Shown piece after piece: positions 25,245 to 44,988 of a stretch of DNA of 64,000 bases. A program made the translations under genes and the position numbers. The notes under the pieces are model-generated. The model was given only the letters and a program-made list of their open reading frames with translations. It made no database searches and was not told the origin of the DNA. The stretch covers positions 1,600,001-1,664,000 of the forward strand of contig OZ220744.1 in the NCBI GenBank assembly GCA_965116925.1, in the 5' to 3' direction. Position 1 is the stretch's first letter, and each line of letters starts with the position of its first letter. This DNA is from Candidatus Poribacteria bacterium (GTDB taxonomy: Bacteria; Poribacteria; WGA-4E; PCPOR2b).

Positions 25245-25328
25245 ATGGGTGAAACGTAAGAATAATGCGTAATACGTAAGATTTTTTATGTATTACGTAT
25301 TATACTTCATTTGAATCAATGAACCAAT

Positions 25329-25393
25329 AAAGTGAAACTCAACACTAATAACCAGTGGATCGGTTGAATTAGGTGTTGGGTTTCACTTTTTTT
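25329..25393 (+). terminator. Long hairpin followed by T-tract downstream of the TonB receptor
   Basis: AAAGTGAAACTCAACAC / GTGTTGGGTTTCACTTT(TTTT). Confidence 0.5.
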
Positions 25394-25525
25394 ATTTATG
25401 CCTAACGCAAGTTGTTACTTATGAGGAACATGACAAACCGGATGGACGCTAAAGGGCTGGCTTTGTTTTAGCGTTCAATCCAACTCCGTTCCAAGCATCT
25501 GCGACCTACCACCGAACAAGGCTAT

Positions 25526-25541
25526 TGGCATCAATCTTGCA
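25526..25541 (+). promoter_or_regulatory. Sigma-54 (-24/-12) promoter upstream of the globin kinase operon
   Basis: TGGCAT-CAATC-TTGCA (GG-N10-GC). Confidence 0.7.
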
Positions 25542-25700
25542 TTCGGATTGATGACCCAAATTATATTGTTGACTTACGTAAAAACTGGGTGCAATGATTG
25601 GATAAATGTGCTAAACTCTTAGGCGCAGATTTCCGAATACTCAATCTAATCTCAACCCGAGGATTGATAACTGAATCTCGCTTAAGGGGACTCATGATAA

Positions 25701-26933
25701 ATGCCAACCGAAAAGAACAAGATTGAAGCTGAAGTCAATCGCCACGATGATTTACAAACCCGTCTATCGTTCCTGAAGTTTAATCAGCAGGATGAAGAAC
25801 ATCTCAAAGCACTCGCAGAGGTTTTCGCTCCCCACATTCCCAATATTGTACACAGTTTCTATCAACACCTACAAGGATTTGAAGAAACCGCTTCGCTGCT
25901 GACTGACGAACTGATTACGAAGCGGTTATTAGATGTACAACAACGCTATCTTGAGAGATTGACAGAAGGAAATTATGACCAACAGTATGCGGCAGAACGT
26001 TCGCAAATTGGGCATACCCACAATCGCGTTGGACTGGAACCGAGATGGTATATTGGGACATACAATTTGTATATCCATCTCTTAGTTCCGTTGATATGTG
26101 AGGCGTACCGCGATGAACCAGAGCGTAGCCAGAATGCCATCCTCGCTCTGACGAAGGTGCTCATGTTGGATATGCAACTGGCAATCGAAGCATATATTGA
26201 GCGGCAACAGTTAGAAGCACAGATTATTCAATCCGAGAGATTCGCTGCAATTGGGCAACTGGCAGCCCGGGTCGCTCATGAACTTCGCAACCCGCTATCC
26301 TCGGTAGAATTGAATTTAGATTTGCTTGCCGATGAAGTCGCCGATGGTCCAGAGATGGATGTCGCGGAGGCGAACGACCTGCTTAAATCTATTCACAATG
26401 AAGTTGAACGGTTGGCTAACATTGTTTCAGAATATCTGGTGTTTGCAAGATTGCCTCGTTTTGAATTTGAGCACGAATCTCTCAATACTGTCGTACAGGC
26501 ATTTTGCGACTTTATCGAACCACAGTTACAGCAAGCCCAAATCACGTTTTCGATAGAACTCGCTGAGAACTTGCCTTTCACCTTATTGGATGCCGAACAG
26601 ATCCAATGTGTTTTGCATAACCTGTTCAAAAACGCCATCGAAGCCATGCCTTCAGGTGGCGAATTTTCGATCCAAACTAGTGTTAGATCTTCTCGGATTG
26701 TGCTGCGAATTTCCGACACAGGCGTGGGCATCCCGCTACCAGATCAGAAACGGATCTTTGATCCCTTTTTCACTACCAAGAAAGGGGGAACCGGTTTAGG
26801 CCTTTCGCTTGCTGGGGAAATCATCAAACATCATCAGGGGACAATTCTTTGTAGGAGTGTTGTTGATCAAGGTACAGAGTTTATCATTACGTTTCCAATA
26901 CGGGACGAGGAATTGAACGAAAGTGGAACATAG
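25701..26933 (+). CDS. Globin-coupled (protoglobin/HemAT-type) sensor histidine kinase
   Basis: N-terminal sensor globin (SFYQHL, IGHTHNRVGLEPRWYIGTY), H-box AHELRNPL, NLFKNAIEA, DTGVGI, FDPFFTTK, GTGLGL; no TM segment. Confidence 0.9.
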   Translation: MPTEKNKIEAEVNRHDDLQTRLSFLKFNQQDEEHLKALAEVFAPHIPNIVHSFYQHLQGFEETASLLTDELITKRLLDVQQRYLERLTEGNYDQQYAAERSQIGHTHNRVGLEPRWYIGTYNLYIHLLVPLICEAYRDEPERSQNAILALTKVLMLDMQLAIEAYIERQQLEAQIIQSERFAAIGQLAARVAHELRNPLSSVELNLDLLADEVADGPEMDVAEANDLLKSIHNEVERLANIVSEYLVFARLPRFEFEHESLNTVVQAFCDFIEPQLQQAQITFSIELAENLPFTLLDAEQIQCVLHNLFKNAIEAMPSGGEFSIQTSVRSSRIVLRISDTGVGIPLPDQKRIFDPFFTTKKGGTGLGLSLAGEIIKHHQGTILCRSVVDQGTEFIITFPIRDEELNESGT

Positions 26934-26988
26934 AACAAGCCGCTACCTAAATCACCAAAACACATCACACACTGGAGGGGCGATAATC

Positions 26989-28353
26989 ATGAATTCAGAT
27001 AAATTAGTTCTCGTGGTCGATGATGATGCGCCTATTCGAGATTCCCTTGAAAGGATCCTAAAGCGTGGCGGATACACTATCCAAACTGCCGCGGATGGCG
27101 AATCCGCTTTAGAATTGATTCGTCGGTACCCGGTCAATCTGATTCTCGCCGATTTGAGAATGCCCAACATGGACGGATTACAGTTGCTCAAAGCTGCCAA
27201 ATTACTTTCCCCCGAAATCGAGGTCATTCTGATGACAGCCTATGGTGAAGTGGATACAGCTGTTGAAGCGATGCGAGCCGGTGCGTTTCACTTTATTCAA
27301 AAACCGTTGAAGCGTTCTGAAATTTTGCTCACCATCGCCCGTGCTCTTGAAAAACAGATGTTGGCTATAGAAGTCCAATCCCTACGGAAACAGATAGACG
27401 CCGAATATTCTTTGGAGAACATCATCGGAAAAAGTCCCGCTATGCGTCAATTGATTACAAAGGTGCAACAGGTTGCATCAAGCACTGCTAGCGTCCTAAT
27501 CACCGGTGAAAGTGGGACAGGCAAAGAAGTTTTTGCTAACGCAATCCATGCTTTAAGCCCAAGAATAGATAAACCGATGATTAAAGTGAATTGCGGCGCG
27601 TTCCCCGATACCCTGTTGGAATCCGAGCTTTTTGGATACGAAAGAGGGGCATTCACAGACGCTAAAGTAAGCAAGCCTGGACGTTTTGAACTCGCGGATG
27701 GAGGAACACTCTTTTTAGATGAAATTGGCGAAATGCCTAAGCCACTACAAGTGAAGTTGTTACGGGTTCTGCAAGATGGCAAATTTGAGCGACTCGGTGG
27801 GACCAAATCCCTCAGTGTGGATGTGCGCTTAATCGCGGCTACAAACAAGGATTTGGCGGCGGAAATCGAGGCAGGTAATTTTCGGGATGACCTGTTCTAT
27901 CGGCTCAATGTGATTACCCTCGAACTCCCACCACTACGCTCTCGCAGGGAGGATATTCCACTGCTTGTAGACTGTTTCGTAAAAAAATATAGTGAAAAAA
28001 CAGAGAAACCGATCCGAGGTATTTCTCGTCAAGCGTTGGAGGCACTTGACGACTATCATTGGCCGGGCAATATTCGCGAGCTGGAAAACGCAATTGAACA
28101 AGCAGTGGTGTTAACACAATCTAATGACATCGAACAGATAGATCTTCCGGTATCAATTCACAAGGGGGATAAGGCCCCGGCTTATTCTGAGGATCTGAAG
28201 TCGATTGTTGTGCCTTTAGGAACACCTATGGAAGATATTGAACGAAAAGTGATAGCCGAGGTGCTTTCGATGACTTCTGGCGACAAGGAATTGGCAGCGA
28301 AGTTGCTCCAGATTTCGTCACGCACTATCTACCGAAAACTGGAAAAGAATTAG
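26989..28353 (+). CDS. NtrC-family sigma-54-dependent response regulator (REC-AAA+-HTH)
   Basis: VVDDD, DLRMP, GESGTGKE, ESELFG, GAFTDA, LFLDEIGE, FRDDLFYRLNV, WPGNIREL, Fis-type HTH; start at MNSDK (RBS GGAGG). Confidence 0.95.
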   Translation: MNSDKLVLVVDDDAPIRDSLERILKRGGYTIQTAADGESALELIRRYPVNLILADLRMPNMDGLQLLKAAKLLSPEIEVILMTAYGEVDTAVEAMRAGAFHFIQKPLKRSEILLTIARALEKQMLAIEVQSLRKQIDAEYSLENIIGKSPAMRQLITKVQQVASSTASVLITGESGTGKEVFANAIHALSPRIDKPMIKVNCGAFPDTLLESELFGYERGAFTDAKVSKPGRFELADGGTLFLDEIGEMPKPLQVKLLRVLQDGKFERLGGTKSLSVDVRLIAATNKDLAAEIEAGNFRDDLFYRLNVITLELPPLRSRREDIPLLVDCFVKKYSEKTEKPIRGISRQALEALDDYHWPGNIRELENAIEQAVVLTQSNDIEQIDLPVSIHKGDKAPAYSEDLKSIVVPLGTPMEDIERKVIAEVLSMTSGDKELAAKLLQISSRTIYRKLEKN

Positions 28354-28397
28354 AGATGTTAATATAATAAAGATAATCCTACGACGGAGGAAACACG

Positions 28398-29159
28398 ATG
28401 ATCCAAAACATTCTCGTCGCGATCGGCGACACACCACATGAACAGAACGCCTTTGAATATGCTGGGCATTTAGCTGCGCTGCTAGACGCTCACCTTTCGT
28501 GCGTCTACTTTGCTGATGAAAGACATCGCGGTCAGGAAGACATTGCCGCTAGAGTTTTCGACAATACGGAATCAGTACTTGCTGAATTCGAGTTTTTATC
28601 CGCTCACGTTGATACTATCACTGGGAACCCTGTAAGAAACCTCTGTGAAAAAGCGCATACTGCCGATCTCGTCGTGGTCGGTATCCCTGAGTCAATCAAA
28701 ATGAAGGGATTACGGTTGATTCACGACAACATCGACGATATTCTGTCCCGCATAACGAAACCGACGATTGTTGTCCATGAGCAATGCACAGTTCTACAAA
28801 AAATTCTGACTGTCCATCACGGCGATGCAGCATCCGACCATGTTCTTGAATTGACAGCGGAGCTGGCAAAGCGAGCCGAGGCGAGCTTGTTCGGTTTATC
28901 ACTGGCAGATACGCAAGTGGGAGCAGCTGAGATCTCTGGACGGATGCGTGAATATCTTCGGTACTACCAAGTGGAAACAGAGTTCAGAGCGCAGTTGGGT
29001 TTTACTGTAACCAACATTCTGAATACAGCAACAGAAGAGGACTGTGATTTAATCGCGCTGAGTGCGAATCATCATGGGCGGTTGTATGAGCTGATTTTTC
29101 AGGACACGACGGAGATGGTTGTAAAACTCGCAGATCGAGCGGTGCTTGTCACCCGGTAG
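28398..29159 (+). CDS. Tandem-domain universal stress protein
   Basis: MIQNILVA, ADLVVVG, KILT, CDLIAL...VLV USP patterns. Confidence 0.8.
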   Translation: MIQNILVAIGDTPHEQNAFEYAGHLAALLDAHLSCVYFADERHRGQEDIAARVFDNTESVLAEFEFLSAHVDTITGNPVRNLCEKAHTADLVVVGIPESIKMKGLRLIHDNIDDILSRITKPTIVVHEQCTVLQKILTVHHGDAASDHVLELTAELAKRAEASLFGLSLADTQVGAAEISGRMREYLRYYQVETEFRAQLGFTVTNILNTATEEDCDLIALSANHHGRLYELIFQDTTEMVVKLADRAVLVTR

Positions 29160-29223
29160 TGCACCGACATAAAAAACTTGTGTCGGTTGGGAGTGCTTCC
29201 GCGGTTGGTTCGGAGTTAAGATA

Positions 29224-29892
29224 ATGTTGGAAGTTGAAGCAAAATTTCAGGTAACATCGCCACAGATATTTGATCAGATTCGATCGCAGAAGCGAGTGGC
29301 AGATTATACACTTTCGGATTGGACGAACAGTTCACAACTAGATACCTATCTTGACACAACGACCGGATTGTTCTTACGGACTGGTGCTTCCTTGCGGCTC
29401 AGGAAGAAGTTTCTCACAACCGGAGCTATCAAGGCGGGAACACAGCTCGTTACATTTAAAACCCAAGCCAAAGGGGTTTATACTCGTACGGAGCTGGAAA
29501 TGCCGATTACGAACCAACAGGTGCAAGCACTATTAAATGGAAATTTTGAGAGGGTTCATGTGGAGGCCGTGGAAGCGACTGTGCATCATCTAAAGGGAGA
29601 AAAGGTATTCCCTGTCCTGCATGTCGAAAACAGCCGTGAAACATGGCTCTTAAATGCGGATCCGGGTTGTATCGAAGTGTGTTTTGATGCAGTGCGGTAT
29701 GCGGATATGGATAGAACACAGTCTGTTCAGGAGTATGGCGTTGAGTTAGAACTCAAAGCCGGTGAACCTGTGTTCCTACAACAGATTGCTGACACATTAT
29801 CTCAACAGTATGATCTAATTCCGACCTTTCAATCGAAATATGAGCGCGGCGTAGCACTCTTGAATCTGTTCGCTGTCAACAGGGAGAGTTAA
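29224..29892 (+). CDS. CYTH domain protein
   Basis: EVEAKF, DTYLDT, LRLR, RTELE, VELELK, SKYERG. Confidence 0.88.
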   Translation: MLEVEAKFQVTSPQIFDQIRSQKRVADYTLSDWTNSSQLDTYLDTTTGLFLRTGASLRLRKKFLTTGAIKAGTQLVTFKTQAKGVYTRTELEMPITNQQVQALLNGNFERVHVEAVEATVHHLKGEKVFPVLHVENSRETWLLNADPGCIEVCFDAVRYADMDRTQSVQEYGVELELKAGEPVFLQQIADTLSQQYDLIPTFQSKYERGVALLNLFAVNRES

Positions 29893-29913
29893 AAAAAGGA
29901 GGTTACCAACGTT

Positions 29914-30096
29914 ATGACCAACGTAAAGAAAATCAAAGGTATTGCGCCGGAGAAAAATCTTGATCCGCTATTCGATACATGCGGGCGGCAAAGTATCAGG
30001 CGTTTTTGCAGCAATGGATTGCGCTTGAGGAGGCAGATTTCAAGGGTCAATTCCTTAAAATCGTTACAGATGAAAACCAATAGTGCCATTTCATAA
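29914..30096 (+). pseudogene. Short ORF, possible 5' remnant of a CHAD-type partner of the CYTH gene
   Basis: Strong RBS AAGGAGG before ATG; only 60 aa; follows CYTH. The CHAD identity is a guess from context and the N-terminal pattern. Confidence 0.25.
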
Positions 30097-30142
30097 CTGT
30101 TGATAATGTGAAGCTGAAACGTGCAGACAACTGGTTAAATTG

Positions 30143-31549
30143 ATGCCGATAGCGAAACAAGCAGAATTTCAAGTTGGCTATGTTTGGATGGCTTTGGCGA
30201 TTGCCATCTTTGGTGGATTCGCGCTAGCTGGTCATCTCGCCTTCGTCATGGGCTTTGATCGACCGTTGGGCGATGGTTTTGCAAGCCTTATTCAGATTCA
30301 CGGACATCTACAATTGGTCGGTTGGGCGGGGTTATTTATTATCGGTATCAGTCTTCACTTCATTCCACGTCTATCAAGCGTTCCCATTTCACACCCCCAA
30401 TGGATTCCCCGTCTGCTTTGGCTCATCGGAATCGGTTTGCTACTACGATTTATTTCACACTCGATTCTACCCTACCTTGATAACGGCTTCCTTTTTATCT
30501 TCTTAAGTTGGATAACCGCCGCCTCCGGATTGCTTGAATGGTATGGGGTGCTGATCTACTTGGCACTGTTAGTAGGTACAACCTTCGGTATGTCTAAGAC
30601 GGATCGAAGACCGCCCTTGATGGCTGTCCGCCCATACTTTGGGATGATGATGGTGGGTTTTCTGCTCTACGCCACAATTCATGCCGTATTGCTGTTACTG
30701 ATGGCGTGGCGAGGGAACATTGTCGTGGGTCAAGCGTGGAATGAGATTTCGATTCACATCTTCATTGGTCTGGTGCTGTTGCCCGTTGCATTCGGGTTTT
30801 CAATTCGGATGCTTCCGCTTTATCTTCGGCTTCCAGTCGCAGATTGGCACGTTCGGCGTGTGGCATACGTTTATCTCATTGGATTTCTGTGCCAGATCAG
30901 GGAAATCCTTCCGATAGATTTCCTTAGCCATATAGAGGAGTACATCTCCAGCGTGGGAAGGTTGGTGAAAGCCAGCATCATCTTATACGTCGTCTGGAAA
31001 CTGGATGTTCTGACGCGCAGACAAGAGCCGCCGATTGCCCATCGCGATTTGCAGCCATCGCCGGATCGCCGAGCGACACGTGGGACTAGCCCGGACCACG
31101 GAGCGTATGGTCGGTTCGAGTGGCACATCTACGCTGCATACGGTTGGCTTGTATTCGGCGCACTTGCTGAGATGCTCATTGGCGGTTTTGGGATTTTTCG
31201 GCTCCCGCTTGCGATTAGTAGCGATGTAATTCGACACATCTATCTGCTCGGATTCATTACCAATCTTATCATGGGTATGGCGGTTCGGATGGTTCCCGGC
31301 TTTCTGAGAAAACGGCGCATTGCAAGCACAAGGTTGATTGATGGAACATTCTGGTTAACCAACGTCGCCGTTGTTGGAAGGGTAGTGCCCTTACTTCTAT
31401 CGTTGGTGCTATTCGATGTGCCTGAATCCATTGACATAATCGCTCAAGCCGCGTTTGGACTGTCAGGAATTTTAGGGCTACTGGCAACAATCTGCCTTGC
31501 TATCAACCTGTGGAAAACAGCGCGTGGTATGCCTACACAACCTGTGTAG
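30143..31549 (+). CDS. NnrS-like multi-pass membrane protein
   Basis: ~12 TM segments; IHGHLQLVGW...HFIPR and RHIYLLGF...GMAVRMVP motifs. Confidence 0.65.
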   Translation: MPIAKQAEFQVGYVWMALAIAIFGGFALAGHLAFVMGFDRPLGDGFASLIQIHGHLQLVGWAGLFIIGISLHFIPRLSSVPISHPQWIPRLLWLIGIGLLLRFISHSILPYLDNGFLFIFLSWITAASGLLEWYGVLIYLALLVGTTFGMSKTDRRPPLMAVRPYFGMMMVGFLLYATIHAVLLLLMAWRGNIVVGQAWNEISIHIFIGLVLLPVAFGFSIRMLPLYLRLPVADWHVRRVAYVYLIGFLCQIREILPIDFLSHIEEYISSVGRLVKASIILYVVWKLDVLTRRQEPPIAHRDLQPSPDRRATRGTSPDHGAYGRFEWHIYAAYGWLVFGALAEMLIGGFGIFRLPLAISSDVIRHIYLLGFITNLIMGMAVRMVPGFLRKRRIASTRLIDGTFWLTNVAVVGRVVPLLLSLVLFDVPESIDIIAQAAFGLSGILGLLATICLAINLWKTARGMPTQPV

Positions 31550-31621
31550 AAAGCACTTGTTGCTTCAACAGGCTTTCAGGTGGAGTGTGGAATGAGTAGG
31601 CGAACACCCCAGTTCCTTTGC

Positions 31622-32074
31622 CTATTTACGTGGTAAATGAATCGAACCGTGTCGTCGTGTTGACCATTCTTGGGCAACAATACGGAAAATATCGGACTCC
31701 GTAATGACACCAACAAGATTCACTCCCACGGGATCAACGACGGGTAGACCGCTGATCTTGTTTTCCAGCATTTTTTGCGCCGCTTCGCCGATTGTCGCAT
31801 CCTCAGCAACCGTTACTGGATCGGGTGTCATCACTTCCCCCACCGTCATCTGTTCCAGCTTTTGGGAGAGTGTCTGTTCCGTATTGCTGAATAAATCAAA
31901 CACTCGATATAAATCGCTCAAGGTCACGATGCCAACGAGTCGATCCGAAGCAACAACTGGCAGTCGCCGAATCTGATCGACAAGCATCAATTGATATGCC
32001 TCGACAATCTCCGTTTCTGGTTCGGCAATGCTTAACTCCTGCGCCATCCAATCCCTCACCAATGTGTGAATCAT
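31622..32074 (-). CDS. CBS-domain pair protein
   Basis: VRDWM, IRRLPVV...LVGIVTLSD, VGEVMT, ISGLPVV...GVITESD. Confidence 0.92.
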   Translation of the reverse strand: MIHTLVRDWMAQELSIAEPETEIVEAYQLMLVDQIRRLPVVASDRLVGIVTLSDLYRVFDLFSNTEQTLSQKLEQMTVGEVMTPDPVTVAEDATIGEAAQKMLENKISGLPVVDPVGVNLVGVITESDIFRIVAQEWSTRRHGSIHLPRK

Positions 32075-32147
32075 TTTGAGGCTCCTTTCTCACTTTTACT
32101 TTCGCGTTGAGTCGGTTGAGGTTCCCGACCTTGCTGAACAACAATTG

Positions 32148-32163
32148 TGCAAAAGCAGTGCCA
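32148..32163 (-). promoter_or_regulatory. Sigma-54 promoter for the CBS gene
   Basis: Minus strand TGGCAC-TGCTT-TTGCA. Confidence 0.78.
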
Positions 32164-32347
32164 GTTAAGAATGGGGATTACTGAACTTGTATGAGCTGCT
32201 CAATTTTCCCATCATTATAACCAGAATATAGCTAAAATGCACGTTAAATTTTTGGTGTTAGTAGCAGATAGCATCAGATGTAGATTTGAAAGGAGATAGC
32301 CTATATCTGCCTCTCCTCTCAATTATTTTACGTTGCACGTTCCAAAC

Positions 32348-32511
32348 TGACAAAATGTCGGGTGCCTTCCCGAAAAAATTGTGATTTTTGCCAGAATGTC
32401 AAACGAAAGTTGGATAGATTTTGGGTTTTTCGACAAAATGTCAATTTTGGTGGTTTTATTCCTAATTTTTCCTAGTAGATCAAGCGTCAAGTGCAAGCGT
32501 GTAAAATGTCA
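32348..32511. promoter_or_regulatory. Phased palindromic operator/enhancer boxes TGACA-N3-TGTCA
   Basis: TGACAAAATGTCG (32348), TGCCAGAATGTCA (32389), CGACAAAATGTCA (32431), half-site GTGTAAAATGTCA (32499). Confidence 0.65.
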
Positions 32512-32578
32512 TGTAAAACCTTACTGTTATTAGCTTCATCATCATCTTCCCTCCCGCAATTTTATCCGTTCGCTATTA

Positions 32579-32594
32579 TGGCACACCGATTGCA
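32579..32594 (+). promoter_or_regulatory. Sigma-54 promoter for the nos operon
   Basis: TGGCAC-ACCGA-TTGCA, 100 bp upstream of the nosZ ATG. Confidence 0.82.
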
Positions 32595-32694
32595 TATTTC
32601 AAGCCGAACCACAGGGCTTCATCATGACAAAGGTCCGGAGCGCAGCTAGAAACGTGCAAGGACATATAACTCTTCACAAAGGAGAAAAATCACC

Positions 32695-34689
32695 ATGCAA
32701 CACACGATTCGGCGACACTCGCTTTCAATGCTAGGACTTGCAATCTTCGGAGTTATTCTATACTTGGGCAGCCACCAGTCTCTACATGCACAACTCCCCG
32801 CTGATGCGATGCGTATTGTACAGGAACGCAGTTTAACCCCTGATGATATCAAGGCTGCCTTGGCGACCTATACCCCCACCGGCAGACATGATGAATATGT
32901 GATGTTCTCTTCCGGAGGGCACAGTGGTCAGGTCATCGCTGTCGGCCTGCCATCAATGCGTATCCTAAAGGTTATTGCGGTCTTTACGCCCGACCCGTGG
33001 CAAGGTTACGGTTATGGAGTGAAGGATGCACCGTTGGACGCCTCAAGCGAAGGGGTGACCGTTGAGGGACAACCCCTCACTTGGGCAGATACGCACCATC
33101 CTGCATTAAGTGAAACTGCAGGGGACTACGATGGCGAGTATCTGTTTATCAACGATAAAGCCAACGGTCGGATTGCCGTTATTGATTTGAGAGATTTTGA
33201 GACTAAACAGATTGTCAAGAACCCAATCTTCCTCAACGATCACGGCGCGACGATGGTGACTCCAGACACGGAGTATGTGGTGGAAGGTTCACAGTACGCC
33301 ATGCCGTTAGGTAATGAATATGCTCCTATTGCCGATTATAAAGAAAAGTATCGAGGGTTGATAACCTTCTGGAAGTTTGACCGTAGCAAAGGTCGCATTG
33401 TCAAAGATCAGTCGTTTGGAGTAGAACTTCCACCTTACTGGCAGGACCTCGCAGATGCTGGTAAGGTAGCGAGTGATGGCTGGGTGTTTTGTGGTTCATT
33501 TAATTCTGAACTAGCAACCGGCGGCATCGAAAGTGGAAATCCTCCCTTTGAGGCAGGCACGGCTGAACGGGATATGGATTATCTGCATCTTATCAACTGG
33601 CGTAAAGCCGAGGCAGCCTTTAAGGCTGGTAAGGTTGAGAAAATTAAGGGTTTCCCGGTGATTACAATTGAGACTGCGGTGGCGGAAGGTATCCTTTATC
33701 TGACGCCTGAACCCAAAAGTCCGCACGGTGTCGATGTTAGTCCTGGTGGAAAATACATTATTGTTTCAGGCAAACTGGATCCGCATGTCACAGTGTATCA
33801 CATTGACAAGATTAAGAAGGCCATCACCGACAAAGACTATGAAGGTGTAGATGAGTACGGTGTGCCAATCCTACGGTTTGACGCGGTCAAGGAAGCACAG
33901 ATAGAGGTTGGATTGGGACCGCTTCACACTCAATTCGACAATAAAGGATATGCCTATACCAGTCTGTTTCTTGATAGTGCGGTTGCACGGTGGACATTGG
34001 GACCGGATGCGAAATATAAAGCACCAGAGCGTTCATGGCGACTTATCCAGCAGCTACCCGTCCATTACAACATAGGCCATCTAGTGACTGCGGAGGGCGA
34101 TACAGTTGAACCGGATGGGAAGTATCTTGTCGCTCTGAACAAATGGGCGGTAGACCGCTTCCTGAATGTGGGACCATTACTTCCACAGAATCTGCAACTG
34201 GTTGACATAGCCCCAGAAGCCGATGGAATGGGATTGCTCTATGACATGCCGCTCGGTATCGGTGAACCGCACTATGCACAGATTATTAAAGCGGATAAAC
34301 TGAAGGCATGGGAGGTGTATCCTGAAGTTGGCTGGGATACCATTAAACAAGAGAAACATCCGAAAGCAGCACTCAAAGGTTCAATTAATCGGAATGGTGA
34401 CACCGTGGAAGTCTTCATGACCGCTATTCGGAGTCACTACGAACCTGAGATTGTAGAGGTCAACAAGGGTGATCGCGTGATACTAAATCTGACCAATCTT
34501 GAACGCACTTACGATGCGACGCACGGTTTCGCCCTGCCCGGTTATAATATCACCTCAAGCATTGAGGCTGGCGAAACGGTCACGCTCGATTTTGTTGCAG
34601 ATAAGGAAGGGGTCTATTCCTTCTACTGCACCGAGTTCTGTTCAGCACTTCATCTGGAGATGGCAGGATATTTCCTTGTCAAGCCGTGA
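32695..34689 (+). CDS. nosZ: Sec-dependent (clade II) nitrous-oxide reductase
   Basis: SSGGHSGQ...PSMR, CuZ ligands DTHH, NDH, SPHG, GPLH, IGH, EPH; CuA HGF...YCTEFCSALHLEM; Sec-type signal; no C-terminal CxxCH. Confidence 0.97.
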   Translation: MQHTIRRHSLSMLGLAIFGVILYLGSHQSLHAQLPADAMRIVQERSLTPDDIKAALATYTPTGRHDEYVMFSSGGHSGQVIAVGLPSMRILKVIAVFTPDPWQGYGYGVKDAPLDASSEGVTVEGQPLTWADTHHPALSETAGDYDGEYLFINDKANGRIAVIDLRDFETKQIVKNPIFLNDHGATMVTPDTEYVVEGSQYAMPLGNEYAPIADYKEKYRGLITFWKFDRSKGRIVKDQSFGVELPPYWQDLADAGKVASDGWVFCGSFNSELATGGIESGNPPFEAGTAERDMDYLHLINWRKAEAAFKAGKVEKIKGFPVITIETAVAEGILYLTPEPKSPHGVDVSPGGKYIIVSGKLDPHVTVYHIDKIKKAITDKDYEGVDEYGVPILRFDAVKEAQIEVGLGPLHTQFDNKGYAYTSLFLDSAVARWTLGPDAKYKAPERSWRLIQQLPVHYNIGHLVTAEGDTVEPDGKYLVALNKWAVDRFLNVGPLLPQNLQLVDIAPEADGMGLLYDMPLGIGEPHYAQIIKADKLKAWEVYPEVGWDTIKQEKHPKAALKGSINRNGDTVEVFMTAIRSHYEPEIVEVNKGDRVILNLTNLERTYDATHGFALPGYNITSSIEAGETVTLDFVADKEGVYSFYCTEFCSALHLEMAGYFLVKP

Positions 34690-37600
34690 ATGAATCAATG
34701 AACCAATTCTTAAAATTTAAACGCACCCGGCGCGAGTGGCTGGTAAGTGCGCTACTAATTGTTGCTAGTATCCTCCTGCTCGTTTCGTTGCTGTTTCCCT
34801 ACTGGCGGGTAGACCTTGAAGCGGGAATTTATCCGAAAGGATTAGCACTCGAACTTCGTCCCTACCGTCTTGATGGAGATATCAAGGAAATCGATGAACT
34901 GAACCACTACATCGGTATGCGAGAGTTGGAGTCGGCGGGGAAACTGGAGCGCACAATTGCTGTTCCGGCGATCATCATTGCGGGGTTATGCCTGCTGCTT
35001 GCGGCGTTTATTCCCCGCAAATGGTCAATATGGCTGACACTTCCCGGCTTAGTGTTTCCGGTTATTTTTCTAGGTGAGTTGTTCTGGTGGTTGGCGGATA
35101 GCGGACTCAATCTTGATCCAAAGGCACCGCTCAACCAATCAATTAAACCGTTTATCCCACCCATCTTCGGGGAAGGACGGATCGCGCAGTTCAACGCACA
35201 CGCCTTTTTCCAGGTTGGATTCTACCTTGCGCTGCTTGCGGCGGTGCTATCAAGGACAGCATTCTATCTGAAGAGGCCGGGATGGTTGGTCAAAGGGTTG
35301 ATGATTGACGCCTCGGTGTTGTTACTTATTTCACTGTTTTTCCCTTACTGGCGGGTAGATTTTGAGGTGCGAAAATTTCCGAAAGGTGCTATACTTCAAA
35401 TTCGGCCAGACCGTATCGAAGGAAACATCCGAGAAGTGAACAAACTGAACCGCGATATCGGAATGCGGAACATCGAATCGGCAGGTCAATTTGAACGGAA
35501 GATCGCCATTCCGTCTATTTTAATTATGGCATTGGGTTTGTTGGGTTCTGTCTTTGTACCGCGAAAATGGTCATCTTGGCTTGCGACCCCCGCCTTAATC
35601 TTTCCAATCATCTTTGTCGGTGCACTTTTTTGGTGGCTGCGGGATAGCGGTCTCAATCTCGATCCCGAAGTCGCACTCTACCCGGACATCGAACCCTTTA
35701 TCCCTCCTGTTGTTGGCACAGAAACAGTCAAATCGGTCACCACGATCTCGACATTTCAACTTGGGTTTTATCTTACCATTTTGACCGCTTTGCTGTCTAT
35801 CTGTGCACTTATGCTCAAAAGATACCGAGCTTTTCACCCTAAACAAACGGTGATGGGAGTTGTGCTGCTCATATCTTTATTCTCAGCTGCATCAACTTTG
35901 AACGCTGCAACGTTGACCGTTGATGAAAATTCCAGTATTGGCGATACGGTAAAACGTGCCACTCAGGGCGATACAATTGTGGTGCAAGGTGGAGTTCATC
36001 ATGAGCGGTTCATCGTAGATAAATCCGTAACCCTCCGCGGTGAAAATGGAGCAATTATTGACGGAGGTGCGGTTGGTAGTGTCATCACAATCCGTGCGCC
36101 GGCGGTGGTTGTCCGTGGATTCACAATTCGCAACACCGGTGACCGGCTTTCTGAAGGCGATGCCGGTATCATGATCAAAAAGGCAAGAGGAGCAATCATT
36201 GAGGAGAACCGATTTGAAGACGCTCTATTCGGAGTTCAAGTGCGGAATGCACCGGACAGCATTGTCCGAAACAACATCTTCCACGGCAAGGACCTCGATG
36301 TTGGGCGCCGGGGAGATTTGATTCGCGTCTGGTATAGTAGCGGTGCGGTGGTTGAAGATAACCGTGTTTTTGATGGTCGGGATGTTGTCATCTGGTATTC
36401 AAAAAATATCACGGTGCGTAGGAATGAGGTACGCAACGGGCGTTATGGGATTCACTTCATGTATTGCGACGATGCAACGATTGAAGATAATCGCCTGATT
36501 GGTAACTCGGTCGGGGTTTATTTGATGTATAGCTACCGTCTGCGGCTTCAGAAAAATTGGGTGATAGCTAACCGCGGTGCTAGCGGTTACGGGATTGGTC
36601 AGAAAGATATGTATGACGGGCTTATCGCGGACAATTTCGTTGCTGATAATCGGGCGGGAATGTTCATGGATAACTCAACGAACACTTTTCGCAATAACCT
36701 AATCGCTTTTAATGATTTTGGAATGCTTGCACTCCCCTCCGCCCGGAAGAACACCTTTGCTAAGAATAGCTTTGTTGACAATGGCGAACAGGTGGCTATT
36801 GAGGGGCAGGGGCGGCTTGGCACTAACCAATGGGCAGGTAATTACTGGAGTGATTACAGCGGTTATGATGCAGATGGGGATGGCATCGGGGATATGCCGT
36901 ATCAGTCAGTACATCTGTTTGAGAAGCTAACCGAGCAGCATCGCGCGTTACGGATTTTCACCTATAGTCCATCGGTGCAGGCACTCGATTTTGCCTCCCG
37001 ACTCTTTCCTGTTTTTACGCCCCAACCTAAGCTGGTGGATGACACCCCGCGTATGCGTCCTGTGATGCCCGATCTCAAAGCACCGAAAGGAGTGCTTTCA
37101 TCAGCATGGTTGTTGGGTGCTTCGATGTTATTCCTGTCCGCTCTGTCTATTTCTGGACACTTAAAAAAATGGTTAAATCCTATTGCGTCTCGCATTCCAT
37201 CCTTTACTTCTAACTTATCAGATAGGACAAAAGACTCAACATACGAGATGCAACATAAATCATCGGAGACGCAAGCAGTCCCTATCATATCCGTCGATAA
37301 TCTGATCAAACGTTTCGGTAAAACAACCGCAGTGGAACGGTTAAGTTTCGATATATCATCCGGAGAGACGGTAGCGTTATGGGGACCGAACGGTGCAGGT
37401 AAAACAACTGCGCTGCGCTGCTTACTGGGGGTATTGCCTTTTGATGGAACGATAACAGTCGGAGGCAATTCGTCGCGCAGCGAAAGTAAAATGGTTCGCC
37501 AGCAGATTGGTTACGTTCCACAGGAGGTTCGGCTCCACAGTGACTTGACGGTGAAAGAAACAATATCGTTTTACGCCCGCTTGCGACGTGTCTCTGAAGA

Positions 37601-38153
37601 TCGCTGGACAACCCTGATGGCTGAGTGGGATTTAACCGAGATTGCGGACAAACGGGTTGGAGATCTGTCGGGCGGCATGAGGCAGCGATTGGCGCTGGCA
37701 ATTGCCCTGCTGTCAGACCCGCCGATCCTGTTGTTGGACGAACCGACGAGTAATCTGGATGTCCATACCCGTCATGAGTTCTGGATGGCACTTGAAGATC
37801 TCAAGAAAGCCGGCAAGACTTTAATCTTCTGTACCCATAGGCTCGATGAAATTTTCAGACTGGCAGACCGTGTTATTGTGATAGATAGGGGAAAGAAGAT
37901 TGCTGAAGGTCCTCCAACACACCTTAATGGCCATCTATCAAGAGATGTGGTGTTGCACCTGTCGATCCCTGAATCGTTCCATGAAACAGCAGCAGACCTA
38001 CTTGAGGGACAAGGTTTCCCCACTAAATGTAACGGCGTGAAGATCTCAGTACAAGCACCGTATGATAGGAAAGCTGAACCGTTTCAAGTATTAGCGGAAT
38101 CTGCTATCCCGATCGACGATTTTGAATTAGCCGATAATCAAGATGAGGAATAA
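34686..38153 (+). CDS. nosD: Fusion protein NosB-NosB'-NosD-TM-NosF
   Basis: Two NosB-like membrane units (PYWRVD...PKG, LNHYIGM/LNRDIGM, LDP...PFIPP); NosD beta-helix (RYGIHFMY, GVYLMYS, GNYWSDY.GYD.DGDGIGD.PY); hydrophobic helix; ABC ATPase (GPNGAGKTT, LSGGM, LLLDEP). Start at 34686 (GTG) or 34698. Confidence 0.88.
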   Translation: MNESMNQFLKFKRTRREWLVSALLIVASILLLVSLLFPYWRVDLEAGIYPKGLALELRPYRLDGDIKEIDELNHYIGMRELESAGKLERTIAVPAIIIAGLCLLLAAFIPRKWSIWLTLPGLVFPVIFLGELFWWLADSGLNLDPKAPLNQSIKPFIPPIFGEGRIAQFNAHAFFQVGFYLALLAAVLSRTAFYLKRPGWLVKGLMIDASVLLLISLFFPYWRVDFEVRKFPKGAILQIRPDRIEGNIREVNKLNRDIGMRNIESAGQFERKIAIPSILIMALGLLGSVFVPRKWSSWLATPALIFPIIFVGALFWWLRDSGLNLDPEVALYPDIEPFIPPVVGTETVKSVTTISTFQLGFYLTILTALLSICALMLKRYRAFHPKQTVMGVVLLISLFSAASTLNAATLTVDENSSIGDTVKRATQGDTIVVQGGVHHERFIVDKSVTLRGENGAIIDGGAVGSVITIRAPAVVVRGFTIRNTGDRLSEGDAGIMIKKARGAIIEENRFEDALFGVQVRNAPDSIVRNNIFHGKDLDVGRRGDLIRVWYSSGAVVEDNRVFDGRDVVIWYSKNITVRRNEVRNGRYGIHFMYCDDATIEDNRLIGNSVGVYLMYSYRLRLQKNWVIANRGASGYGIGQKDMYDGLIADNFVADNRAGMFMDNSTNTFRNNLIAFNDFGMLALPSARKNTFAKNSFVDNGEQVAIEGQGRLGTNQWAGNYWSDYSGYDADGDGIGDMPYQSVHLFEKLTEQHRALRIFTYSPSVQALDFASRLFPVFTPQPKLVDDTPRMRPVMPDLKAPKGVLSSAWLLGASMLFLSALSISGHLKKWLNPIASRIPSFTSNLSDRTKDSTYEMQHKSSETQAVPIISVDNLIKRFGKTTAVERLSFDISSGETVALWGPNGAGKTTALRCLLGVLPFDGTITVGGNSSRSESKMVRQQIGYVPQEVRLHSDLTVKETISFYARLRRVSEDRWTTLMAEWDLTEIADKRVGDLSGGMRQRLALAIALLSDPPILLLDEPTSNLDVHTRHEFWMALEDLKKAGKTLIFCTHRLDEIFRLADRVIVIDRGKKIAEGPPTHLNGHLSRDVVLHLSIPESFHETAADLLEGQGFPTKCNGVKISVQAPYDRKAEPFQVLAESAIPIDDFELADNQDEE

Positions 38154-38156
38154 ACC

Positions 38157-38993
38157 ATGATTGCTGCAGCTTCTAACATTTCTGTTGTGATGGGTAAAGA
38201 GATACAAGACTCTCGCCGCAACCGATGGTTTCTGCTGTTCACGGTTGTTTTTACTGGATTGGCACTCGGTTTAAGTACACTCGGATTTTCGGGGCTCGGC
38301 ACCTTCGGCGTAGCCGGCTTTGGACGCACGGTTGCTAGTCTCATTAATCTTGTTGTACTGATTGCGCCCCTGATGGGTTTACTGCTCGGCGCTATCAGCA
38401 TATCCGGTGAGCGGGAACGAGGCAGTCTACTTCCGATTCTAGCGCAGCCTGTGACGCCAACAGAAGTGTTGCTCGGAAAGTTTTTCGGAACAGCGGCAGC
38501 ACTCGCTGCAGCGATCCTTTTCGGGTTCGGACTAAGCGGATTTGTGATTGCGTGGCGAGGTGGTTTCGCCCAACTGGACAATTATTTGATGCTGGTCGGG
38601 TTGACTTTGCTGCTCGGTCTTGTTCATCTTAGTATTGGCTTCTGTCTATCTGTCCTCACATCAAAAAGCGCGACAACATTGAGTCTTGCCCTCATCCTCT
38701 GGCTGTCAATTGTGTTTCTCAGCGATCTCGGTCTCATTGGGACAGCAATTGTGCTCAGACTATCACCGGAGGTATTGCTTGCAGCAGTGCTGTTGAACCC
38801 AGCGCAGGTTTTCAAATTGGCGGCAATTCAGATGATACAGGGGAATTTAGAGTTACTCGGCACCGCGGGACGTTATGCTGCGGATGTGTTAGGCGTTTTC
38901 TTACTGCCGGTACTGATGGCATTACTCGTTTTCTGGGTGTTTATCCCACTCGGAATCGCTATTTACATCTTTCCACGAAGGAGTGCACAATGA
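38157..38993 (+). CDS. nosY: ABC transporter permease NosY
   Basis: KEIQDSRRNRW, ISGERERGSL..ILAQPV...LLGKF, LLNP; nos context. Confidence 0.9.
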   Translation: MIAAASNISVVMGKEIQDSRRNRWFLLFTVVFTGLALGLSTLGFSGLGTFGVAGFGRTVASLINLVVLIAPLMGLLLGAISISGERERGSLLPILAQPVTPTEVLLGKFFGTAAALAAAILFGFGLSGFVIAWRGGFAQLDNYLMLVGLTLLLGLVHLSIGFCLSVLTSKSATTLSLALILWLSIVFLSDLGLIGTAIVLRLSPEVLLAAVLLNPAQVFKLAAIQMIQGNLELLGTAGRYAADVLGVFLLPVLMALLVFWVFIPLGIAIYIFPRRSAQ

Positions 38994-39463
38994 AACCAAC
39001 GAAAATGGAAGGAAGGGAAATACTCATTTCAGGTTTCACATATCTTGTGTTTGTCATCGGACTAATCATGACCGGCTGTGGGACGCAAGATAACGGCCCC
39101 CCTCGCATCCGATACGGTGAAGAAACTTGCGATCGATGCCGCATGATTATCAGCGAAAAACGGTTCGCTGCCGCATATCGGACCGAATCCGGTGCACTGC
39201 GAAAGTTCGATGATTTGGGTTGTGCAGTACTCCATCCAAGAGAACAAGAGGAAACGATAGCGCAATTTTGGGGGTATGATTACGAAGAGACCGATTGGTT
39301 GGAGGTAAGACAAGCATTCTTGGTACATAGTTCGGAGCTCTTGACTCCGATGGGATATGGAATTGCTGTTCTTCCAACAGCGGAAAAAGCTACGGCATTA
39401 GCAGAAAAGGTAGGTGGTCGAATCGTGCAATTTGACCAACTTTATCCAATTTTACAACCATAA
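38990..39463 (+). CDS. nosL: Copper chaperone lipoprotein NosL
   Basis: Lipobox MTGC, CDRCRMIISE, FDDLGC, TPMGYG. Confidence 0.9.
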   Translation: MKPTKMEGREILISGFTYLVFVIGLIMTGCGTQDNGPPRIRYGEETCDRCRMIISEKRFAAAYRTESGALRKFDDLGCAVLHPREQEETIAQFWGYDYEETDWLEVRQAFLVHSSELLTPMGYGIAVLPTAEKATALAEKVGGRIVQFDQLYPILQP

Positions 39464-39481
39464 ATGAAAGGAGAATAAACG

Positions 39482-40255
39482 ATGTTACTCAAGCGAATCT
39501 TATACATCGGACTGGTATTAATTTCGGTTCTATTCACTGTAACTCTCGTCCAGTTGGGTTGGACGACCGAAGAGAAAAAAGTTGACCCTTCTATATCTCA
39601 AACTGAAGCGACACCTGATACCGCTACCATCATTGGCACGGTGAAATTTGAAGGGGAGGCCCCTTTTCGGCGTGCAATTAATTTCGGTGCCAATTTGGAT
39701 TGTAAACATCTACACGATGGCAAAGTCCATTACGAGGATGTCGTCATCAATCAGAATGATACCCTCAAGGATACGCTTGTTTATGTCAGAGGAAAACCGA
39801 AGGGAGACCATAAGCCATCGACAAAACCTATTGTGGTCGATCAGGTAGGTTGTATCTTTATTCCACACGTTGCAGCGGTGATGGTGGGTCAGCCGATGGA
39901 ATTTCTTAATAGCGATCCGGCACTTCACAATATTCGAACTGAATCGAAAAAACAGCGACCATTTAATATCTCCCAGCCGAATAAAGGCATGAAATACACG
40001 CACCAATTTGAGGCAGCTGAAATAGGGATTCCGCTCCGGTGCGATGTTCATCACTGGATGGTCGCTTACGCGCATGTCTTGTCGCATCCGTTCTATGCCG
40101 TTACTGGCGAGAAAGGCACTTTTAAGATTCAGGGCCTTGCGCCGCGTACTTACAACATTGAGGCGTGGCACAGTAAGTTAGGAGCACAGAAACAGAAGAT
40201 TACGTTGGCAGCGGGGGAAACTAAGACGGTGGATTTTGTATTTACTAGCGAGTGA
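39482..40255 (+). CDS. Exported cupredoxin-like protein with carboxypeptidase-regulatory-like domain
   Basis: N-terminal signal/anchor, DQVGCIFIPH, NSDPALHN, CDVHHWM (His...Cys-x2-His-x2-Met), GTFKIQGL...Y.IEAWH. Confidence 0.7.
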   Translation: MLLKRILYIGLVLISVLFTVTLVQLGWTTEEKKVDPSISQTEATPDTATIIGTVKFEGEAPFRRAINFGANLDCKHLHDGKVHYEDVVINQNDTLKDTLVYVRGKPKGDHKPSTKPIVVDQVGCIFIPHVAAVMVGQPMEFLNSDPALHNIRTESKKQRPFNISQPNKGMKYTHQFEAAEIGIPLRCDVHHWMVAYAHVLSHPFYAVTGEKGTFKIQGLAPRTYNIEAWHSKLGAQKQKITLAAGETKTVDFVFTSE

Positions 40256-40381
40256 CAGGAAACAGAAAACGAGAAGACGGGAAAGCGGGAGAACGAGAAG
40301 ATTTTTACCGCAGAGGTAGGGAGGCCACAGAGGAAGAAAAGAGAGTGAGCAGAGAAACCCCAAAGGCTCATGTTAAGATTT

Positions 40382-40472
40382 AGTGCAAAGAAACCGAGTT
40401 TGACCCCCTGACAAGGGGGCAGCGAAGGGGAGCTTCGCAGGGGGGTTAAAAAAACTCGGTTTCTGTTGTACT
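40382..40472. repeat. Inverted-repeat element between convergent genes
   Basis: AGTGCAAAGAAACCGAGTTT / AAACTCGGTTTCTGTTGTACT enclosing CCCCCT..AGGGGG hairpins; related end at 22321. Confidence 0.55.
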
Positions 40473-43158: not shown

Positions 43159-44988
43159 ATGAGAACAGTCGTTTTTCGTTTTACCCTTTTCATGGTTATT
43201 TGCTTTATCCTTGTATTAATAGATGGAAACACGCTGCTGTGGGCACTTCCTGAGTCGTTTGTACCTACTGCGAAGTATCTTTTTGAGACGATTGAGGTGC
43301 CCGGCGTCCATTTTCTGGAGTTGACTTCAAGCAATGACCTTGGGGATTATGCGGGCAACACTCGTAGCCCCGATGGCGAGAATATGATTGGCTTCACACT
43401 GATTGACGGGGTACTTTCTACCTACGGTGTCCCCGATTCCCTCACCTTTGGTTTCTACGGACTCAACAATGCAGGGCAGACTGTGGGTTTCTATCAGGAT
43501 GCGAACGAGGTTTCTCACGGTGTGATTGTGCAGGACGGTGAATTGACAAAATACGATTTTCCGGGGGCAGCCGAAACGGAGATCTTTGGTGTTAGTGAAT
43601 CAGGGCTACTTATTGGTGATATTTTTGATGCTGCTGGGGCCATTCACGGCTTTGTGGGCGATGAACAGTTTGATGTGCCTGGGGCGGTGACAACCTATGC
43701 CGATGATATGAACGCTGCGGGCAGCCTCGTTGGAAGCTACGTAGATGCCGATGGTGTATATCACGGGTATATACGTCACGCCGACGGTAGTTTTACCACT
43801 TTTGACTATCCGGGTGTGTTGTCAAACCTAGAATACCTTTTCGTGAACGCTATCAGCGATGCCGGCGTCATCGTGTTCAGAGCCAAAGCGTTTGACGATT
43901 TGGAACGGACTTATATCCGTCTCCCGAATGATACGGTGAAGGAGCTGAAATTCCCGGGTAGCGCGACGACGGTGGCGCGAGATATTACTGGGGACGGGCA
44001 GATTGTCGGTTACTACGACACGCTAGATGGACGCAGACACGGATTTATTGCCAAACCCTTTGCTAGTGAAACTGTGGAAGATTTTAGCAACGTTTACTCA
44101 GTTGCTTTCTCCAGAGGCTTGAACATGCTCTCGATTCCCCTAAAGCCAAAGACACCGCTGACCGCCCGTTCCTTAGCAGAGATGATTGGGGCAACAATAG
44201 TGATTACTCTAGATGAGATGAATCAGAAATTTGTGGGTTGGACGCCGGACACGCCAGACGATGGATTTCCGATTGAAGGCGGGAAGGGGTACATCGTCAA
44301 TCTCTTGCGGCACCGAGAGGTTACCTTCGTTGGCGCAGCGTGGGGAAACCAATTGCAAGCTGCAGCGGCACCGAGCGTAACATCGAACGAAGGAACTTGG
44401 GCGTTTGTCCTTAGTGGACACTTGGAGAGTGAGCGGAACCTCAATGGCTATCTGGTCACGGCGCGAAACCTACGCACCAATGCTATCATGACAGGTAATG
44501 TACGAGATGGGTACTTCGCCGTGGCGACCGCCGATCTCTCACGCCGGAGTATCGTGCAGGTTGGCGATTCCTTAGAAGTCGCTGTCACCGATACAACCGG
44601 GGAGATTGCTTCGGAAAAATTCAATTTCATAGTAACGCCCGACACGCTTGCAAATGCGGTTTTGCCAGTAACGCTTGATGGCGTTGGTGCGCCGAAGCAG
44701 ACGCTTCTACTACAGAACTATCCGAACCCGTTCAACCCTGAAACGTGGATACCGTATTACCTTTCGGACGCTGCGTCTGTGACGATATCAATCTATGATG
44801 CGACCGGACAACGAATTCGGAGACTTGCGCTAGGAGTCCAAGCGGCAGGTTTCTATCAAAGTCGGTCCCATGCCGCCTATTGGGACGGGCGGAATGATTT
44901 GGGCGAGCGGGTTTCCAGTGGGGTCTATTTCTACCAATTGTCCACCCCATCGGAGCACCAGATGAAGCGGATGGTTATTGTAAAATAG
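43159..44988 (+). CDS. Secreted protein with HAF-like beta repeats and long C-terminal FlgD/T9SS-like module
   Basis: Repeats GLNNAGQTVG.Y...HG, DMNAAGSLVG.Y...HG, DITGDGQIVG.Y...HG; tail GLNMLSIPL...GFPIEGGKGY...LLQNYPNPFNPETWIPY. Confidence 0.75.
   Translation: MRTVVFRFTLFMVICFILVLIDGNTLLWALPESFVPTAKYLFETIEVPGVHFLELTSSNDLGDYAGNTRSPDGENMIGFTLIDGVLSTYGVPDSLTFGFYGLNNAGQTVGFYQDANEVSHGVIVQDGELTKYDFPGAAETEIFGVSESGLLIGDIFDAAGAIHGFVGDEQFDVPGAVTTYADDMNAAGSLVGSYVDADGVYHGYIRHADGSFTTFDYPGVLSNLEYLFVNAISDAGVIVFRAKAFDDLERTYIRLPNDTVKELKFPGSATTVARDITGDGQIVGYYDTLDGRRHGFIAKPFASETVEDFSNVYSVAFSRGLNMLSIPLKPKTPLTARSLAEMIGATIVITLDEMNQKFVGWTPDTPDDGFPIEGGKGYIVNLLRHREVTFVGAAWGNQLQAAAAPSVTSNEGTWAFVLSGHLESERNLNGYLVTARNLRTNAIMTGNVRDGYFAVATADLSRRSIVQVGDSLEVAVTDTTGEIASEKFNFIVTPDTLANAVLPVTLDGVGAPKQTLLLQNYPNPFNPETWIPYYLSDAASVTISIYDATGQRIRRLALGVQAAGFYQSRSHAAYWDGRNDLGERVSSGVYFYQLSTPSEHQMKRMVIVK

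Follow-up and report, generated by a model that had tools for sequence, protein, structure and literature searches.

A candidate globin kinase and sigma-54 activator circuit at a clade II nitrous oxide reductase operon of Candidatus Poribacteria

The window analysed here is a stretch of 64,000 nucleotides from Candidatus Poribacteria bacterium (GenBank GCA_965116925.1, contig OZ220744.1, positions 1,600,001 to 1,664,000), which is C1:1600001-1664000 of genome G000, a single contig of 6.47 Mb rated 99% complete. An island within the window carries genes for a globin-coupled histidine kinase and a sigma-54 enhancer-binding response regulator (the activator), followed by a clade II nitrous oxide (N2O) reductase (nos) operon; this feature is real, and its support as a regulatory unit is good. 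The best explanation is that, as oxygen falls, the kinase, which is likely heme-bound, would phosphorylate the adjacent activator, likely directly; the activator would in turn occupy a triple TGACA-N3-TGTCA array and activate two divergent sigma-54 promoters, that of the nos operon and that of a gene for a CBS-pair protein, with the result that a non-denitrifier would respire N2O produced by others. A probability of roughly 0.58 is assigned to this explanation as a whole. The phylum survey comprised 176 Poribacteria genomes, and comparisons were made with 19 congeners, 112 genomes of family f2, eight genomes of the distant Poribacteria family f8, the sister genus G020, and G076, which is directly wired from kinase to activator with no relay.

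The globin-HisKA-HATPase gene, and the REC-AAA+-HTH gene after it, that had been predicted from the DNA within 7 kb of nosZ were confirmed by profile search, with the kinase and nosZ starts 7.0 kb apart. The nos genes have the composition of a clade II cluster, namely a Sec-dependent NosZ with CuA and CuZ ligands (839.7 bits against a cut-off of 625 on TIGR04246, the model for Sec-dependent clade II NosZ), nosD, nosF, nosY and nosL, and no nosR. The strict -24/-12 pattern TGGCAY-N5-TTGCW was found exactly three times in the window compared with 0.11 expected, a count reached in 0 of 100 shuffles, and all three boxes are intergenic, 89-175 bp ahead of the kinase, CBS and nosZ genes, where such promoters had been predicted. 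The pattern occurs 44 times genome-wide, thus three within 7 kb represent a cluster. The rpoN gene, the presence of which the original prediction had asked to be confirmed, was found in G000 over the profile cut-off. The same genome encodes about 25 full-length enhancer-binding proteins, therefore the boxes alone do not identify the acting activator.

Three predicted enhancer palindromes, consensus TGACA-N3-TGTCA, occupy the spacer between the boxes of CBS and nosZ, which are divergent. They are spaced at 41-42 bp, and their distance is 149-232 bp to the nosZ box and 198-281 bp to that of CBS. This array, which had gone unnoticed in the original prediction, is the sole such array in G000. A site matrix built from 18 sites, all from other genera, placed it first among the triples of the 6.47 Mb genome, with 16.1 bits for its weakest site compared with 4.6 for the next-best triple, and the same matrix reached at most 7.3 bits on 10 block shuffles. 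Among 76 sigma-54-like sites in G000, three had two or more upstream sites of at least 7 bits, those of nosZ, CBS and, weakly, groEL. In eight aligned genomes the three palindromes and the box were conserved and the rest of the spacer had diverged (63% mean identity). A weaker palindrome pair precedes the groEL sigma-54 box (C1:2148656-2148807 of G000; also L120:6244-6351). An NmpR box and an FNR box were considered as nosZ control sites and rejected, as neither was found upstream: the NmpR-type site GCGCA-N5-TGCGC (up to two mismatches) was absent from 32075-32694 and 25245-25700, occurring 25 times in the window against 27.6 expected, and no FNR box with up to one mismatch was found between CBS and nosZ.

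Matches to the FNR, DNR, NnrR and NosR families were also lacking among the island proteins scanned, as originally predicted. Two cNMP-domain proteins are encoded in G000, and the CRP-like one has a single Cys, hence no FNR cluster motif. A scan of the genome for denitrification genes gave no nirS, no nirK over the cut-off and no NarG-like match, and one full-length heme-copper oxidase subunit I is present; by this gene content the organism is likely a non-denitrifying N2O reducer.

Control of nosZ by the activator, as originally predicted, is supported by the array, by conserved linkage and by a negative control. Among the 19 congeners the globin kinase was found in seven, nosZ in seven and both in six, and in those six the kinase and nosZ starts are 4.8-17.8 kb apart. 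Across the phylum survey, clade II nosZ was detected only in the studied genus and in 4 of the 112 f2 genomes, the four f2 loci having the same operon with NosZ 83-85% identical. Upstream of nosZ in the studied genus, a box (18-20 bits) and a triple array were present in 8/8 regions, whereas box and array were found in 0/4 of the f2 regions, with no box above 8.5 bits; these four f2 genomes have no protoglobin, and their activator paralogues are at best 47-48% identical. As far as the sequences tell, the promoter elements track the regulator and not the operon, and the f2 contrast is the best control.

The activator retains the REC Asp and Lys, Walker A (GESGTGKE), Walker B, a GAFTDA loop and a Fis-type HTH with ISSRTIYR. 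GAFTDA is a variant of GAFTGA that is expected to stay active (PMC4641369). Its start is probably the ATG at 26989, because most orthologues are about 454 aa long and begin at the matching Met. In G007, G009, G018, G012 and G020 the operon that encodes the activator is itself preceded by a palindrome, and congener G001, which is without the activator, has no palindrome pair even at up to three mismatches. In family f8, protoglobin was found in 5/8 genomes and in 5/5 of these the globin kinase is directly followed by an activator 52-54% identical; the palindrome is upstream of all five operons, a sigma-54 box was seen in 2/5, and the f8 activators keep the recognition helix ISSRT(I/V)(Y/H)R. 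Binding of the activator to the array is accordingly predicted with considerable confidence. In two further genomes, G067 and G021 (L279:5306-8351, L132:8415-11619), an activator orthologue (62-64%) stands beside PAS kinases with no protoglobin match, the G067 locus adjoining an aldehyde:ferredoxin oxidoreductase; the sensor input of the activator has been swapped several times. In several genera a cytidylate-kinase-like gene is found together with the globin kinase or with the enhancer (L102:4555-5226, L115:17304-18053, L226:2568-3185), and a 305-aa database protein, P0030, joins a globin start to the activator AAA+ domain, probably by deletion or misassembly.

The kinase has a proximal His107, a distal Tyr54, Leu76 and Gln80, and a phospho-His193 within HELRNPL. 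His107, Tyr54 and Leu76 align with His99, Tyr45 and Leu68 of AfGcHK, the globin-HisKA-HATPase protein of Anaeromyxobacter sp. Fw109-5 (PMC8697598, PDB 5OHE), in which Met72 stands in place of the Gln, and a heme-gas input is very likely on this alignment. The linker from Tyr165 to His193 is 28 residues by alignment count, compared with 26 in AfGcHK, and the predicted monomer model shows a single helix over 140-214 (mean pLDDT, the predicted local distance difference test, 70; below 50 at 170-193). Elsewhere the linker measures 42 residues in the G020 sensor, 58 in two close homologues and 72 in f8. A globin was present in 51 of 146 new representatives, and among 19 representative globin kinases with linkers below 100 residues, 10 had a length of 2 mod 7, including f8 (72).

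The identity of the kinase partner is indicated by the kinase core. The globin is 71-75% identical to those of G020-type globin kinases, whose own cores match only 23-27%; the core is 70% identical to G020 REC-kinases, with which it is grouped in a tree (99/98). One of these REC-kinases is co-transcribed with an activator 73% identical to that of G000, and the residues after the phospho-His are near-identical to the G020 kinase of that activator operon and differ from the other nine G000 kinases with a readable H-box. With a G020 REC-kinase hybrid as query, the sole match in G000 and in seven congeners was the core of the globin kinase itself; no REC-kinase or HDLK-type kinase orthologue was found in G000, and no REC exceeded 34% over its full length. 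A dual-REC phospho-sink of the NmpT type was absent from the island by domain scan, no dedicated genome-wide search having been made. Given an activator-cognate core and no REC- or HDLK-kinase orthologue, phosphotransfer would very probably proceed directly to the neighbouring activator. A recent chimeric origin of the kinase, by which an ancestral relay would have been short-circuited, was considered and dropped, as direct wiring is also found in f8 and the tree outgroups; the G020 relay is probably the derived form, on a globin tree that is poorly resolved and with a root that was not tested.

In G020, 17 palindrome-pair matches were located at 11 loci, all of which were inspected. Those with a box precede a 2-oxoacid:ferredoxin oxidoreductase gene with an HdrA-like gene after it; an operon for a Mo enzyme of the type II DMSO reductase family, headed by a membrane protein gene; a hydrogenase of group 3b, opposite which lies pyruvate:ferredoxin oxidoreductase, on a side where no box matched; the G020 genes for the kinase, the activator and an AhbD-like radical SAM protein; ferrochelatase and multiheme cytochromes; ccmE; a cupredoxin-like gene; and a glgC-like gene. 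No box was matched before a run from a corrinoid protein to cytochrome oxidase subunit II, a heme-binding EB_dh protein, and a ScdA/hemerythrin gene with a homologue of the island membrane protein encoded at 30140; another homologue of the latter stands after an array in G025. In the directly wired G076, a second site-plus-box precedes hoxE, and array-linked genes in the congeners include Usp (universal stress protein), Hsp20, CBS, MgtC/DUF4010, Lon-like and CHAD genes. By their predicted products, these genes read as a low-oxygen set that is not strictly anaerobic. The original prediction of a switch specific to nos was not upheld, nos being one target among a wider lineage regulon. A gene for an alternative sigma-70 factor is found within or next to the f8 globin kinase operon, and behind a site-plus-box promoter in G024 (L267:5275-6369, L268:2555-3757, L269:114-1295, L226:983-2293), and a cascade from sigma-54 to sigma-70 is possible.

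Judged by the nature of the targets, the kinase is probably active, on balance, in its deoxy form, the reverse of AfGcHK, although the sign cannot be read from sequence. With no inverter, the kinase is likely on when deoxy; otherwise nos would be made in oxygen. In engineered kinases, altered linkers can reverse the sign (PMC11164954).

A number of observations weigh against a deoxy-on kinase acting through the activator on nos. The congeners inherit one common island and are not independent, and the kinase, activator and nosZ linkage, which the original prediction proposed as a check, held in the six congeners above and was broken elsewhere: in G018 both regulators are present and nos is missing, in G012 nosZ is truncated and a kinase was not found, and G020 is without nosZ. 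The array persists without the activator in G015, and arrays occur in G024 and G025, both fragmented assemblies, where no activator orthologue was found. The weak pair before groEL and the related two-mismatch pairs found in 8 of the 112 f2 genomes may mean that another of the roughly 25 activators reads similar sites. Three of the 11 G020 arrays had no sigma-54 box matching the patterns used, and some precede genes that are not anaerobic (the glgC-like gene and the run to cytochrome oxidase subunit II). The common linker register, 2 mod 7 and including f8, differs from that of G000, thus polarity need not transfer from G076. AfGcHK is on with O2 (PMC8697598), and NmpU of Myxococcus xanthus is modelled as on in oxygen (PMC11841059).

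The last two points lead to the same wiring with the polarity of AfGcHK, in which the O2-bound kinase would be on and nos would be made in oxygen ahead of need and used once the habitat becomes anoxic, or would serve aerobic N2O reduction; this is unlikely. AfGcHK shows activity in its Fe(II)-O2, Fe(II)-CO and Fe(III) forms and none when deoxy (PMC8697598), and such a polarity with direct wiring would turn nosZ on in air, a point not seen in the original prediction. Some clade II organisms do reduce N2O in the presence of O2 (10.1101/2022.10.27.514152). G020 has a globin kinase with a REC-kinase, as in Nmp where the hybrid inverts, and its globin is 71% identical with a linker (42) in the same heptad register as that of G000. 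Phosphorylation of REC-kinases may, however, activate (LvrB) as well as shut off (NmpS), therefore the G020 relay need not invert. The site and box before hoxE in the directly wired G076, and the island targets Usp, Hsp20 and CBS, which match hypoxia-induced Nmp targets, also argue for deoxy-on signalling.

A distinctly unlikely reading is that nitric oxide (NO) or heme redox, rather than O2, is sensed, the ligand-bound kinase being active in nitrosative low-oxygen episodes when N2O is around. The activity of AfGcHK with CO and as Fe(III) (PMC8697598) would be consistent with this, as would the G020 array before the ScdA/hemerythrin iron-centre-repair gene and the 30140 homologue. The distal Tyr/Leu pocket, however, resembles that of O2-binding sensor globins, in which Gln80 is common. 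Moreover, the hydrogenase, HdrA and heme synthesis genes of the regulon are anoxia targets rather than NO targets.

It is quite improbable that nosZ is sigma-54 dependent and read by another enhancer-binding protein, the globin pair being a co-inherited neighbour. Some of the roughly 25 candidates in the genome have similar recognition helices (40-47% identity), the closest paralogues of the activator being at C1:695443 and 4729171, and the related sites in f2 and at groEL, together with the arrays lacking an activator orthologue in G015, G024 and G025, could be accounted for in this way. The palindrome nevertheless follows the operon of the studied activator over two families and the sister genus, and is missing as a pair from G001.

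The claim that the circuit is autoregulated probably does not hold for G000, where the kinase promoter keeps its sigma-54 box and has no enhancer site of at least 6 bits. The same was found in G005 and G008; G013 has neither box nor site, and G006 lacks a strict box but has a single site, of 7 bits. In four congeners (G007, G009, G012 and G018) the kinase-operon array is intact, a triple array with the same box. From this distribution, feedback on the kinase operon looks ancestral and was probably lost in G000. A block resembling a sigma-70 promoter (GTGCAA-17-TAAACT with TG) is present in G000, G005, G008 and G013, all without the array, and not in G006, G007, G009 or G018, and is a possible replacement promoter for the kinase; a consensus sigma-70 scan, performing at chance level, did not call it. 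That the island is decaying and the circuit no longer a working switch in this strain is very improbable: the kinase-promoter array and the cytidylate-kinase-like gene are gone, the CHAD pair is a remnant and nos is lost or broken in G012, G015, G016 and G018, but all open reading frames (ORFs) from kinase to cupredoxin are intact and 76-98% identical to congeners, and the ligands, array and boxes are kept. The repeated loss or breakage of the nos operon and its regulator can be seen among the congeners at L114 (G012), L116 (G015), L117 (G016) and L110 (G018); G015 and G016 hold island remnants with no nos.

The features of the island are listed in Table 1. The membrane protein at 30140..31549 is one we take to be NnrS-like. 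No C-terminal cytochrome c domain was found in the domain analysis of NosZ. The gene after nosZ is a single ORF of 1155 aa in which a membrane domain is fused to NosD, a periplasmic protein, and to NosF, a cytoplasmic ATPase; the membrane domain, duplicated with a 55% internal repeat and without a Pfam match, is presumably NosB. The same fusion is kept in congeners and in f2, and is thus not an assembly error. The secreted protein gene with the type-1 copper-like motif also closes 4/4 of the f2 nos operons, and its cupredoxin-like product is a possible electron donor to NosZ. Outside the island, several genes at 18428-22169 and 43159-44988 of the window share a FlgD-Ig or secretion-tail-like C-terminal domain.

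Table 1. Features of the island, in window coordinates.
Feature	Position	Strand	Basis or remark
Sigma-54 -24/-12 box, kinase operon	25526..25541	+	Strict pattern
Block resembling sigma-70 promoter	25589..25617	+	Congener comparison
Globin-coupled histidine kinase, 410 aa, Protoglobin+HisKA+HATPase_c	25701..26933	+	Domain search, ligand alignment
Sigma-54 enhancer-binding response regulator, REC+Sigma54_activat+HTH_8	26989..28353 (ORF alternative start 26923)	+	Domain search, motifs
Tandem universal stress protein	28398..29159	+	Domain search
CYTH-domain protein	29224..29892	+	Domain search
Remnant (deletion) of CHAD gene pair, intact in congeners	29914..30081	+	Congener comparison
Multi-pass membrane protein, weak COX1 match	30140..31549	+	Domain search
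CBS-pair protein	31622..32074	-	Domain search
Sigma-54 box, CBS gene	32148..32163	-	Strict pattern
Predicted enhancer palindrome 1, TGACA-N3-TGTCG	32347..32361	.	
Predicted enhancer palindrome 2, TGCCA-N3-TGTCA	32388..32402	.	41 bp after site 1
Predicted enhancer palindrome 3, CGACA-N3-TGTCA	32430..32444	.	149 bp before nosZ -24 box
Sigma-54 box, nos operon	32579..32594	+	Strict pattern
Clade II Sec-dependent NosZ, CuZ His motifs and CuA motif	32695..34689	+	Profile and motifs
Single-ORF fusion: duplicated membrane domain, NosD, NosF ATPase	34686..38153	+	Domain search, internal repeat
NosY-type ABC-2 permease	38157..38993	+	Domain search
NosL	38990..39463	+	Domain search
Secreted protein, type-1 copper-like motif (H149; C-x2-H-x2-M at 187), carboxypeptidase-regulatory-like tail	39482..40255	+	

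A scan of a genome collection gave seven full-length orthologues of the kinase, all from Poribacteria, and one partial; the other 72 matches were to the kinase core. A metagenome scan with the kinase alignment returned at least 80 loci via generic kinase patterns, and among the matches listed none exceeded 42% identity; a fold search returned kinase cores alone. RNA contigs (four runs from two studies) cover, in pieces, the kinase, the Usp and CYTH genes, CBS and parts of nosZ; a single contig spans an upstream TonB gene into the kinase, from which level, strand and regulation are not readable; none of these was used as evidence. The short intergenic stretch at 40360-40401 was matched by many unrelated RNA contigs, suggesting a genome-wide repeat.

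As an architecture, a globin kinase leading to a sigma-54 activator is not new. In the DosS/DosT-DosR system, a heme kinase is on without O2 and the hypoxia regulon includes Usp, Hsp20 and CBS. FixLJ also has a heme kinase that is on without O2 (PMC8697598), the polarity proposed here. Both differ in having a PAS or GAF sensor rather than a globin, and a LuxR-type regulator rather than a sigma-54 enhancer protein. NmpRSTU of M. xanthus is a hypoxia circuit from a globin kinase to an NtrC-like sigma-54 activator (PMC11841059, PMC6211767), in which NmpU phosphorylates the receiver of NmpS, shutting NmpS, and NmpS, not NmpU, phosphorylates NmpR (PMC11841059); the targets include CBS, Usp, HemN, hemerythrin and cbb3 oxidase (PMC11841059, PMC6211767). 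Shared with it are the soluble protoglobin kinase at the top, the NtrC-like sigma-54 output, multiple palindromic enhancers, a hypoxia regulon that takes in CBS, Usp and genes of O2-independent heme synthesis, and autoregulation, here probably in relatives of G000. The present locus differs in that no NmpS-type REC-kinase inverter was found and the kinase has an activator-cognate core, in the site (TGACA-N3-TGTCA at 41 bp rather than GCGCA-N5-TGCGC with 14-15 bp gaps) and in having clade II nos as output; the likeness is one of architecture. Compared with AfGcHK, the partner would be the transcription activator itself and the polarity is predicted to be opposite. In clade I organisms nosZ is controlled by FnrP and ANR/DNR (10.1101/2022.10.27.514152), which likewise link nos transcription to oxygen but are CRP/FNR regulators. 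No literature linking a globin-coupled histidine kinase with nosZ, or nosZ with RpoN or an enhancer-binding protein, was found in a search that left most subscription journals outside its reach.

NosZ is the only known biological sink for N2O (PMC11148229). For a clade II operon from an uncultured lineage, this locus supplies a defined candidate sensor and activator together with their candidate enhancer and promoter. The lineage is largely sponge-dwelling. Sponge tissue is described as going hypoxic when pumping stops, and an oxygen switch would fit this if the organism lives there. The broader proposal, that a deoxy-on globin kinase wired straight to a sigma-54 activator is the FNR-equivalent low-oxygen regulator of much of Poribacteria and that one genus captured clade II nos, is finely balanced. 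The enhancer permits a low-oxygen regulon to be read from Poribacteria genomes. If the kinase is on when deoxy, it would be a globin kinase of opposite polarity to AfGcHK, and if it is on with oxygen, nos would be built in air; should the deoxy-on explanation be true, the lineage linkers of 72, 58 and 28 residues and the split relay would offer a series on how sign is set in globin sensors, and on oxygen sensing by clade II N2O sinks.

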